Assembly (NCBI GenBank): GCA_963762115.1
Contig: CAVXJH010000003.1
Location: forward strand, 320,001 to 384,000
Direction of reading: 5' to 3'
Length of the DNA: 64,000 bases
DNA from: Candidatus Babeliales bacterium
GTDB taxonomy: Bacteria > Babelota > Babeliae > Babelales > JANWKD01
Shown here: in pieces, positions 42,109 to 45,506 of the stretch
How the letters are laid out: each line of letters begins with the position of its first letter
Numbering within the stretch: position 1 is the stretch's first letter
Notes under the pieces: model-generated
What the model was told of the DNA's origin: nothing
Databases searched by the model: none
The model's input: only the letters and a program-made list of their open reading frames with translations
Position numbers and translations under genes: made by a program

Positions 42109-42669
42109 TCATTTCGATTCTGCAAATAATTGACTCTCAATTGATCTATTATGTTCATCAATAATTTCTCTTTTTGTTTCTTCAATATTTTGCAGTATAC
42201 AGTTTCTTAAGACATTAAGAAGATTTAATATATTTATAAAGTCCTGACAGGACAAAGGCTCAAAAAGAGCTTGATTAATTTTAATATCAAGAGCCTTACC
42301 AGAATTATTATCAATAATCATGAATACTTTGACAGGATCATATTCTGTTTTTTCAGTATGAGCAACATGTTTATTTCTTAATTCTATTAATTTTTTATGT
42401 AAATCCTTTTGCTCATTGCTTACATCCTTTAAATCAATGAAAGATAAAACTGCTTCACGATTGTCTTTTGAAAAAAGCTTTCTATAAATAATAATAATTC
42501 CATGATAACCATGAAAATGTTTACAATTACTAGTCCTACACTTTTCCATTTCAAAATTAACTAGGTCAATAAGGGTTAAAAGGTCTCCATCAATGCGAAT
42601 TAAACCCTTTAATTTTTTAACATCATCACTTTCAACTGTAATGAGAGAACATCTGGTATTATCATTCAT
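42109..42669 (-). CDS. Hypothetical protein with HEPN-like R-x5-H motif
   Basis: 186 aa, helical, IELRNKHVAH; no signal peptide. Confidence 0.55.
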   Translation of the reverse strand: MNDNTRCSLITVESDDVKKLKGLIRIDGDLLTLIDLVNFEMEKCRTSNCKHFHGYHGIIIIYRKLFSKDNREAVLSFIDLKDVSNEQKDLHKKLIELRNKHVAHTEKTEYDPVKVFMIIDNNSGKALDIKINQALFEPLSCQDFINILNLLNVLRNCILQNIEETKREIIDEHNRSIESQLFAESK

Positions 42670-42920
42670 AAATTACAATTATCCTAAAATAATTTTATAT
42701 TTTTTCTTTAAGTAATGAACAAGTTAAATTATAATTATAGTATTCTAACTTTTTATTAATTCCTTTTTTTACTATCAAGTTCTTTTCAATTTTTCATAGA
42801 CTCAAAAATACTTCTATAATTATTATTTCTTATTATTTTTACATATTTTTTCATTAAATTTTTCCTCTTTAAAAAGTGATTATTATTTTTTTTGTTTCTA
42901 ACATTACCATATAAAAAGTA

Positions 42921-45506
42921 CTAATTTCCAAGCCAATCTTTCCATCCTCCCCATCCTTTGTTAGCATATACGCTATTTGGTGCAATAGGGATATCGATAG
43001 GACAAAAACCAGTTTTAGTCCATGTAAACCAATCTTCTTTACCCCTAAGAGAAAGACTTCTAGCAAAAGCTCTGGCTTCTTCAAACCCTTTAAATTCTTT
43101 TTTAAAACTCGCAATATTTCCGGTTCCTAAAAAATCACCCCAACCACACCATTCTTCAGCATAAACACTCCTAGGGTCGGCTGGAATATCGCTAGGTCGT
43201 TCTTCGCTTTTTGCAAAATTTGTCCAATCATTTTTATTTTTCAGATCAAGCGAATGTGCATATTTTCTTGCTTCAACAAATGTACAAAACTGGCGATTTT
43301 GGTTAGCAATTACATTAGTTCCTAAAAAATCCCCCCAACCTGCCCATCCCTTATTTGCAAAGGTTCTTTCTGGTTTACCTGAAATATCATTTGGCAATTG
43401 ATTATTTTTTTTATATTCACGCCATTCAAATTCATTTTTTAATCCAAGGGATTGCACAAATTTTTTTGTTTCTTCAAAAGAACGGAATTTTTGTTTTTGT
43501 GACGCGATAGTATTTGTACCTAGGAAATCTCCCCAATCTAACCATCCTTTATCTCTATATGCTTTATCTGGAGCTGAAGGAATATTTTTTGGTCTCTGAT
43601 CTGATTGTGCCCATTGAACCCATTCACTCCAGCTTTTTAAACCCAGATTTCTTGCAAAAGCTCTTGCTTCTTCAAATGGAACAAAATTTCGACTCATTTG
43701 AATTGCTTCACGCAGTTTTTCAAAAGTATTAATGTTACAAACACCACTTGTATAGCGAAGTAAAAATTCTAAAGGATTAGTTTTTTGTAAAATATCAAAA
43801 CCAATATCCTCAACAGAGATTCCTTGCATACGCAAAGTTTGACGGGACAACATACCCCATATTTGCTTAGCAACTTCTTCTTTGTGCTCAACAATACCAT
43901 AGCCATCAAGAATTTCAGGAATCATCCTCTTATATTCATCCCAAAGCCGTAAGGTGTCTTCAGCAGCTATTGGATCATTATTAATTATACTGATTAATTG
44001 GTTAGTAACATCTTCAACTAAGGATAATTTTTGAACTTCATCTGGAATTACAACGCTCAACCAATCATTACTTTTTTTAAAATCAACATTATTATTTTCA
44101 TTCTTTTTTTTCTCTAAAGGCATTTTGATTTTTACTGGATTGAAAATATTCTCTAAAATTAATGACGCATAAATTGCCTTGAGATAATCATTAAGATTGT
44201 TTCGAAACATTTCATCATCTTGTTGCTCTAAAGAGAAAGGTAATAGTTGAATAACTTCAATATGGCTTTTATTCGGGGCATCTCTAAAAAGCCGTCCAAT
44301 CATTTGTATTATATCAACCAATGATGATCGAGCGCCTACAATGATAGCACGATCAGCCCAAATCCAATTGGCACCTTCTTTGAACATCCCTAAAGCAATA
44401 ATAACATCTAGAGCTTCGCGGTCTGCTTTTAATCTTGGATCGTTGATAAAGTCCTTTTTTTCAATGCGCTGATTTTCATCAACAAGATCAAGAATTTTAA
44501 AATCTCCATTTTCATTGCTAATAATGTGCAAACCATTCACATTTTTGGAAATGATGCCATTATAAACCTTACTAAATTTATTAATGATATTTTCTACTTC
44601 TTGATATTTGTTTCCCATTGAATATAGAGAATTAGGATGTGGAACATAAATAATATCTTTTGCTTTTCTACTCAATGCTAATAACTCAATTGCTTTTGTA
44701 TAATCTTGACCACAAATCAAAAAATCAAAATTAAAGGATTTAAGATAGATCATTGAATTGAGATATTCATCATAGGGTAAATTAAATCTAATAAATTTAG
44801 ATTCCATAGCAGCAGTGAGCAAAGATCCTCTATCGCCACGAAAAAAAGAAGCTGTCGTAAGCCCAACTTGTAGATGACTTGAAAAATTATTCAAACAATA
44901 TGCAACTAATTCTCCAAGAGCATTGCTTATTACAACGCCTTTAAAAGCTTCATTTTCTAAATTTTTTACATGATGAGCTTCATCGATCCAAATTAAAAGA
45001 TTATTTAACAAATCCAAACGATTATCAAATTTTAATTTTTTATATACAGCAACTAAAGTAGCATGAGTACAAAGAATAACTTTTTCAGCAAAAACATCTG
45101 TAGGATTATTAAGCCAGCTGATCAAATATCTTACTGTGCCATTATGTGATTGATTTTTATTACAAAGATTATGGACAACTTTCCAATCTATTTTTTCTCC
45201 ATTTGGCATCTGGAAATTAGCTTCAGCAAAACCCGATGCTATTATAGTTTGTGGAACAGTAATTATAGCACGTAAAGCACGATCATTTTTCAATTTAAAA
45301 GCAGTTAAGAGACAAATCAACCAAGATTTACCACTTCCCATTGGAGCATTAATGATCATAAAAGGCTTCGTTTGTAACAACTCGAATGCTTTGATTTGCC
45401 AACCACGCATTGCAAAATAGCTGCCAGTCAAATCAGTAGATTGTTCAGCTTCGCTAGTTAAAATTAAATTAAAGCCTGTTTGTTTTAACGGCTCTTGATA
45501 GTCCAT
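42921..45506 (-). CDS. SF2 DEAH-type helicase/ATPase (YeeB-like) with four C-terminal Trp-rich repeats
   Basis: APMGSGKS, LCTHAT, IDEAHH, TTASFFRGD, IIALGMFKEG, QMIGRLFRD; four ~65-aa FEEARxFAxxLGLK...GWxxWGDFLG repeats. Confidence 0.88.
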   Translation of the reverse strand: MDYQEPLKQTGFNLILTSEAEQSTDLTGSYFAMRGWQIKAFELLQTKPFMIINAPMGSGKSWLICLLTAFKLKNDRALRAIITVPQTIIASGFAEANFQMPNGEKIDWKVVHNLCNKNQSHNGTVRYLISWLNNPTDVFAEKVILCTHATLVAVYKKLKFDNRLDLLNNLLIWIDEAHHVKNLENEAFKGVVISNALGELVAYCLNNFSSHLQVGLTTASFFRGDRGSLLTAAMESKFIRFNLPYDEYLNSMIYLKSFNFDFLICGQDYTKAIELLALSRKAKDIIYVPHPNSLYSMGNKYQEVENIINKFSKVYNGIISKNVNGLHIISNENGDFKILDLVDENQRIEKKDFINDPRLKADREALDVIIALGMFKEGANWIWADRAIIVGARSSLVDIIQMIGRLFRDAPNKSHIEVIQLLPFSLEQQDDEMFRNNLNDYLKAIYASLILENIFNPVKIKMPLEKKKNENNNVDFKKSNDWLSVVIPDEVQKLSLVEDVTNQLISIINNDPIAAEDTLRLWDEYKRMIPEILDGYGIVEHKEEVAKQIWGMLSRQTLRMQGISVEDIGFDILQKTNPLEFLLRYTSGVCNINTFEKLREAIQMSRNFVPFEEARAFARNLGLKSWSEWVQWAQSDQRPKNIPSAPDKAYRDKGWLDWGDFLGTNTIASQKQKFRSFEETKKFVQSLGLKNEFEWREYKKNNQLPNDISGKPERTFANKGWAGWGDFLGTNVIANQNRQFCTFVEARKYAHSLDLKNKNDWTNFAKSEERPSDIPADPRSVYAEEWCGWGDFLGTGNIASFKKEFKGFEEARAFARSLSLRGKEDWFTWTKTGFCPIDIPIAPNSVYANKGWGGWKDWLGN

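Follow-up and report, generated by a model that had tools for sequence, protein, structure and literature searches.

The closest described relatives of the locus analyzed here are the DnmA/YeeA-YeeB-YeeC clusters (MmeI-like, type IIL-related), a gene arrangement reported to be constant among MmeI homologs that lack an endonuclease (PMC2731913). In the account given for B. subtilis the cluster was inactive against three phages, while Vibrio crassostreae homologs are cited there as protective (PMC9973331). Two further families bear on the locus. AbiU2 is described as a HEPN family found near R-M operons; the same source reports that HEPN domains have been coupled repeatedly to R-M-type helicases and proposes that they act next to these helicases as a PrrC-like suicide back-up (PMC3710099). 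Integrases of the VPA1269 type are assigned the GmtZ role in a preprint (bioRxiv 10.1101/2023.03.28.534373).

We compared these systems with a helicase gene and a small gene located in a 64,000-nucleotide stretch ("the window") of a Candidatus Babeliales genome (1.53 Mb, 34% GC; contig CAVXJH010000003.1, positions 320,001 to 384,000). The original prediction had described both genes, their strands, their nth and Xer flanks and AT-rich spacers, and it agrees with the open reading frame coordinates (Table 1) and with the GC content of the two spacers (15% and 25%, versus 34% for the contig). Signal peptides were not apparent, by eye only, in either protein.

Table 1. Features of the locus (nucleotide positions refer to the window, residue positions to the helicase protein)
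Feature	Position	Strand	Description
nth, endonuclease III	41366-42040	-	host gene, left flank; 68 bp downstream of the small gene
Small gene	42109-42669	-	186 aa, helical; probable AbiU2-like HEPN RNase toxin (predicted), R98-x5-H104
Spacer, helicase gene/small gene	42670-42920		251 bp, 15% GC
Helicase gene	42921-45506	-	861 aa, SF2, YeeB-derived, orphan
Helicase core	about aa 30-430		ResIII/DEAD-like
Helical C-domain	about aa 430-605		YeeB-like
Four Trp-rich integrase-type repeats	42921-43685	-	PF14882-like; predicted nucleic-acid-binding array
Spacer, helicase start/xerC	45507-45732		25% GC; contains the right junction of the insert
xerC-type recombinase	45733-46668	+	host gene, right flank; conserved core gene, outside the insert

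The helicase gene and the small gene are the sole contents of an approx. 3.6-kb insert between nth and xerC. In three relatives nth and xerC are adjacent, approx. 115 to 150 bp apart in G001, a genome of the same genus, and in G004 (in both of which they are divergent neighbours) and approx. 530 bp apart in G003; in G002, which is 64% complete, nth was not found. As the relatives thus carry an empty site, the two genes represent a lineage-specific insertion. Neither the helicase nor, in a profile search, the small-protein family was found in any of the 260 other genomes of the phylum, and a recent, foreign origin of the insert is supported. No terminal repeats, target duplication, dif-like site or other junction signature was recognised at the insert. 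We also considered xerC as the integrase of the element and ruled it out, as it is a conserved core gene beside nth in relatives; integrases or recombinases flank several related loci (L005, L159 and L167; sequence reading). The nth-xerC gap of G003 (L015:955-1483) holds an AT-rich insert of approx. 400 bp with approx. 30-bp inverted repeats at its ends (by eye), which suggests that this gap tolerates insertions. Separately, two Dependentiae-like contigs (L026:7794-11994 and L043:2-3155) carry a related helicase and one variable gene 3' of nth, at a site that differs from that in the window; the variable gene in L026 encodes a PF05168 HEPN protein.

The two inserted genes differ in base composition (GC 27% vs 33%, GC3 17% vs 21%). 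A promoter scan of the spacer between them was at chance level (23 vs 20.7 +/- 4.7) and detected no terminator; the small gene may have its own promoter there. Among the sequencing-run matches listed, no RNA run carries the locus, and one DNA run, which may be the source sample, contributes 8 near-identical pieces over nth, the helicase gene and xerC, none of which spans the insert. In a second assembly (P0003) the same helicase stops at 479 aa beside an A-rich run, reflecting either an assembly error or a strain variant. Elsewhere in the window, we observed a 1924-aa protein (33114-38888, plus strand) with a signal-like N-terminus, a very long Cys-Cys/Trp coiled-repeat array, a beta-helix-like C-terminus and no credible Pfam match; an 880-aa FtsH-like protease with a tandem pair of AAA domains (51527-54169, minus strand; sequence reading); and a Lys/Arg/Ala-rich histone-H1-like protein (40948-41307, plus strand) with a weak HC2 match, which is present in relatives too.

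All of the helicase motifs quoted in the original prediction were located (Walker A at aa 54, DEAH at aa 175, motif III at aa 218 and motif VI at aa 401), with the SF2 motifs intact; no nuclease domain was detected in the protein. Comparison with three plasmid YeeB proteins, two from full methyltransferase-helicase-GIY-YIG operons and one from a record that, at its edge, shows no partner other than the nuclease gene, gave 27 to 29% identity over 596 to 655 columns for all three (E 1e-53 to 1e-61). Judged by sequence, the helicase is a true YeeB homolog, as predicted, with the same SF2 helicase and helical C-domain; it differs from YeeB of the described clusters in having neither YeeA nor YeeC, in an added repeat tail of about 255 aa and in belonging to a separate clade. 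No sequence match for the helicase was found in the PDB. In the PADLOC library (dated 2023), PbeA, Hachiman HamB and Cas3 gave partial matches to generic SF2 motifs of the helicase (best E 8e-8), their partner genes were lacking, and the small protein had no model; the locus is not a member of a PADLOC system.

The four repeats, with lengths of 66, 66, 65 and 57 aa, begin at aa 608, 674, 740 and 805, the last ending at the stop (42921); they are pairwise 42 to 50% identical and are visible in the DNA at a spacing of 195 to 198 bp. The tail scored 17.8 bits against PF14882, where the Pfam cut-off is 26.5; three helicase homologs carry precomputed PF14882 assignments. The integrase-type nature proposed for the repeats was supported by tblastn matches to VPA1269-family proteins (25 to 31% identity, E down to 5e-21), with VPA1269/GmtZ integrases matched in 29 plasmid records, one of them confirmed between gmtY and gmtX. 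Five jumbo-phage records, all of 309 to 485 kb, were matched as well. The repeat unit resembles that of these integrases; in the window it is fused to a helicase and lacks a recombinase domain. The net charge of the tail is near neutral (38 K+R, 33 D+E); solely by analogy with fusions of such repeats to other proteins, the tail may bind DNA.

A similar architecture is found in the Mrr REase-SF2 helicase-HA repeat proteins (PF13156, PF04851 and PF03457), which also combine an SF2 helicase with Trp repeats of about 66 aa and share the same pool of neighbour genes. Their helicase is unrelated, being alignable at motif VI only, they carry their own nuclease domain, and no profile similarity was found between integrase-type and HA repeats. 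These proteins are sporadic in the phylum (15 of 261 genomes). One copy is in the genome of the window: behind this Mrr-helicase-HA protein (929 aa; L156:3993-7892, i.e., G000:C6, about 570.0-573.9 kb), after 27 bp, lies a protein of 360 aa that weakly matches a restriction-endonuclease fold.

Searches for helicase homologs yielded 965 matches among 7995 scored candidates. The best of these are 55 to 62% identical and include proteins whose names point to Legionella cincinnatiensis and to a Simkaniaceae MAG; over the whole core the closest homologs reach 55 to 61% identity, with invariant catalytic columns. The genes of several homologs (L003, L038, L010 and L011) are broken up, possibly through assembly errors. 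Among the 119 homologs listed, 52 have the repeat type of the window (35 with four copies), 19 have HA-type repeats, 18, 8 and 4 fall into three further classes, and 18 have little or no tail; these differing classes indicate that the tail is a swappable module.

A tree was built from 80 loci with a long core, reduced to 65 by removal of 15 near-duplicates, together with the window helicase and the three YeeB references. Canonical YeeB formed a distant outgroup on a long separate branch. In a basal grade of 38 rows, in which many helicases are phage genes, a methyltransferase-fold partner gene was present in 23 of 26 evaluable rows, and in the derived clade that includes the window it was present in none of 27 rows, 16 of which have ample flanks. 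Support for the derived clade was 0.92 (FastTree) and 95 (SH-aLRT in a quick IQ-TREE run, with the group defined from the first tree); it comprises genome loci L001 to L008 (titled mostly Chlamydiales/Chlamydiota), Dependentiae-like loci and the window, whose nearest neighbour is L038 (65%). Together, the basal grade and the derived clade apparently represent an undescribed offshoot of YeeB, and no description of it was found in largely open-access literature (main texts, mostly abstracts). Given the long-branch root of the tree, transfer of the helicase would have been from phages to bacteria. The partner, present at L030:6347-7003 and at 35 further loci (alignment A3), is a conserved, unannotated protein of approx. 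215 aa with a SAM-methyltransferase fold; its sequence is unrelated to that of YeeA, and it had no tblastn match among GenBank phages and no sequence match in the PDB. Its combination with the helicase in phage-like contigs is a candidate new phage module. The cultured Tunturiibacter phage Tunturi_5 (309 kb; L112:4908-8691) carries a distant homolog of the helicase gene and, after it, two stand-alone repeat genes with helicase annotations; no methyltransferase-fold partner was found among 9 nearby genes tested. The phage represents a tractable experimental member of the helicase family.

The small protein carries the predicted RNKHVAH at aa 98-104, which corresponds to the HEPN R-x4-6-H motif. 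Among the 35 representatives of its family (including that of the window), 33 were aligned and two fragments were left out; H91 is invariant in the aligned members and H104 is present in 32 of 33, while R98 is present in 12 of 33 and is replaced by Ala or Gly in 20, the closest homologs among them. HEPN_AbiU2 (PF18734) matched the motif region of the small protein at 14 bits, below the gathering cut-off of 26.8, and was matched weakly by 4 of 33 family members (best E 0.0086). A distant match (E 4e-4) belongs to a UniRef cluster named "HEPN AbiU2-like", and a profile-profile comparison with six AbiU2-like proteins placed the motifs in register at a non-significant probability of 1.4%. Structural comparison placed three HEPN toxins among the top 50 matches, tied with unrelated helical bundles; Foldseek returned no match at E 0.001 in the PDB or a viral library, which is still compatible with HEPN. 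No sequence match was found for the family in the PDB, or for its homolog P0123 among plasmids. These lines, each weak, converge, and the small protein is, as originally proposed, probably a HEPN member; the predicted RNase activity has a little better than an even chance. Compared to AbiU2, with which it shares R-x5-H, a predicted helical bundle and the weak Pfam match, the small protein has an extra invariant His91 and a YRK motif, and the Arg is lost in most close homologs.

The original prediction further combined the two genes into a sensor helicase and a HEPN toxin that would form a dedicated module. With all 35 family members used in tblastn and an HMM run on six frames, the small-protein family was found in none of 98 helicase loci (59 with at least 1.3 kb of downstream and 39 with at least 3 kb of upstream flank) and in none of five whole genomes with a close helicase homolog. 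A fixed pair with this HEPN family is therefore not upheld; what survives of the proposal is that in related loci the helicase is frequently followed, immediately downstream, by a different toxin-like gene. Of the 22 clade loci that could be evaluated, 15 have a co-oriented next gene no more than 300 bp away; in 13 of them the distance is at most 111 bp, and none of these 13 genes resembles a housekeeping gene. The other seven lack a co-oriented gene in the 300-bp range. The next gene differs at almost every locus, including a PF05168 HEPN (L026, E 1e-12) unrelated to the small protein of the window, a RelA/SpoT protein (L036), trypsin-like proteins (L024 and L034) homologous to an L002 protein that matches Lamassu LmuA, PIN-like proteins recognised by eye only (L007 and L045), and membrane or unfamiliar proteins. 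Approximately six of the 15 co-oriented neighbours are toxin-, nuclease- or protease-like (two by Pfam, two trypsin-like and two PIN-like by eye), and 22 of 36 neighbour genes have no family match. TIR, CoiA and AbiJ-like genes lie upstream of other helicase-homolog loci. Cargo families are common to the YeeB-type clade and the unrelated Mrr-helicase-HA family and also occur upstream or reversed. The variable slot is compatible both with a functional position for effectors and with a shared hotspot for cargo. We also observed, beside both helicase families, a family of approx. 320 to 340 aa with PIN-like acidic motifs and no Pfam match (L001:1393-2346, L007:13091-14071, L168:4151-5146 and L045:11070-12086).

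Four explanations other than the one we prefer were weighed. That the locus is what remains of a canonical yeeA-yeeB-yeeC (MmeI-like) restriction operon after deletion of the other genes would account for the full-length YeeB homology, but the tree separates the clade from canonical YeeB (651 to 694 aa, without a repeat tail), and YeeA and YeeC are absent from the window, from the genome (tblastn with two YeeA and three YeeC references) and from the 98 loci, 29 of which have room on both sides. The helicase is thus the orphan it was predicted to be, its close homologs are likewise not flanked by yeeA or yeeC (L022 has an 80-aa solo GIY-YIG two genes downstream, not YeeC-sized), and this explanation was rejected. 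A conserved two-gene helicase-HEPN system, for which the co-orientation of the genes, their joint isolation in the insert and the HEPN-like motif and fold would speak, is very improbable given the co-occurrence results and the lack of a PADLOC model for the small protein. It is somewhat easier to imagine, yet still unlikely, that the locus is a non-functional relic, in which a phage-derived helicase without its partner and a passenger gene were fixed by chance and are on their way out. The extreme patchiness within the phylum, the split homologs, the 479-aa version in the second assembly and the missing phage protection by B. subtilis dnmA-yeeB-yeeC (PMC9973331) are in line with decay; intact frames with all motifs and the conservation of the core and catalytic columns are not.

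A possible, if tentative, alternative is a plug-in sensor-effector cassette, in which the repeat array would sense foreign DNA and the ATP-driven activity of the helicase would unleash whichever toxin occupies the slot (a HEPN RNase here; elsewhere another HEPN, a PIN-like, a trypsin-like or a RelA/SpoT protein), leading to abortive infection. Such a cassette would fit the close, co-oriented and frequently toxin-like downstream genes, the independent HEPN of L026, the parallel occurrence of HEPN with Mrr-HA helicases in G061 and G127, and the recurrent coupling described for HEPN and R-M-type helicases (PMC3710099). It is weakened by effectors that share no domain able to dock the helicase, by a gap in the window that is among the longest, and by the frequent loss of the motif Arg in the small-protein family. 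Co-orientation at 68% is, moreover, about what ordinary bacterial gene order yields. Rather doubtful, in our estimate, is a broader scenario in which a YeeB offshoot arose in large phages as a helicase with a small SAM-methyltransferase and with swappable repeats for DNA specificity, entered intracellular, protist-associated bacteria in a single capture, lost its methyltransferase and now acts as a plug-in, toxin-firing sensor, with the present locus as its HEPN-armed version.

The explanation we prefer, though we consider it about evenly balanced between right and wrong, is that the two genes are mobile conflict (defence-type) cargo that travelled together and acts largely independently. As relatives of the helicase adjoin many different genes and never this toxin family, loosely linked cargo describes the locus better than a fixed sensor-toxin pair. 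The helicase would bind DNA via its repeat array and translocate with ATP, and would descend from the helicase and SAM-methyltransferase-fold module of phage contigs, with loss of the partner from this clade; the small protein, acting on its own, would be an abortive-infection-type HEPN RNase, expressed from its own promoter in the AT-rich spacer. This cargo reading, which draws on the helicase side of the comparison, is favored by the 251-bp gap (versus a next gene within 111 bp in 13 of 22 clade loci), by the differing composition of the two genes, by the cargo shared with the Mrr-helicase-HA family and the loci without a co-oriented gene, and by the AbiU2-like genes of the phylum, of which, in the stretches read, six of eight do not immediately follow a repeat-tailed helicase. 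Against it stand the lack of a nuclease in the helicase itself, the location of the variable gene in the usual place of the ancestral methyltransferase-fold partner, the often abutting co-oriented genes, including HEPN (L026) and RelA/SpoT (L036), and the remaining two AbiU2-like genes, each placed immediately behind an HA-repeat protein (one cut by a contig end) of a kind that is itself rare in the phylum. Overall, the locus is recent and foreign, probably conflict-related, and not a conserved pair.

The specific pair in the window is by itself a single predicted instance, and the helicase family is of more interest. Until now, YeeB helicases had been described solely as the central gene in MmeI-like clusters; here, we find a large sister clade in which both partners are swapped and interchangeable repeat arrays have been gained. 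Its phage branch offers a testable two-gene module, in which the helicase is combined with an unannotated methyltransferase-fold protein, and a way to approach the function of integrase-type, HA and related repeats; its bacterial branch points to uptake of phage-derived conflict genes by bacteria that have small genomes and are probably intracellular.
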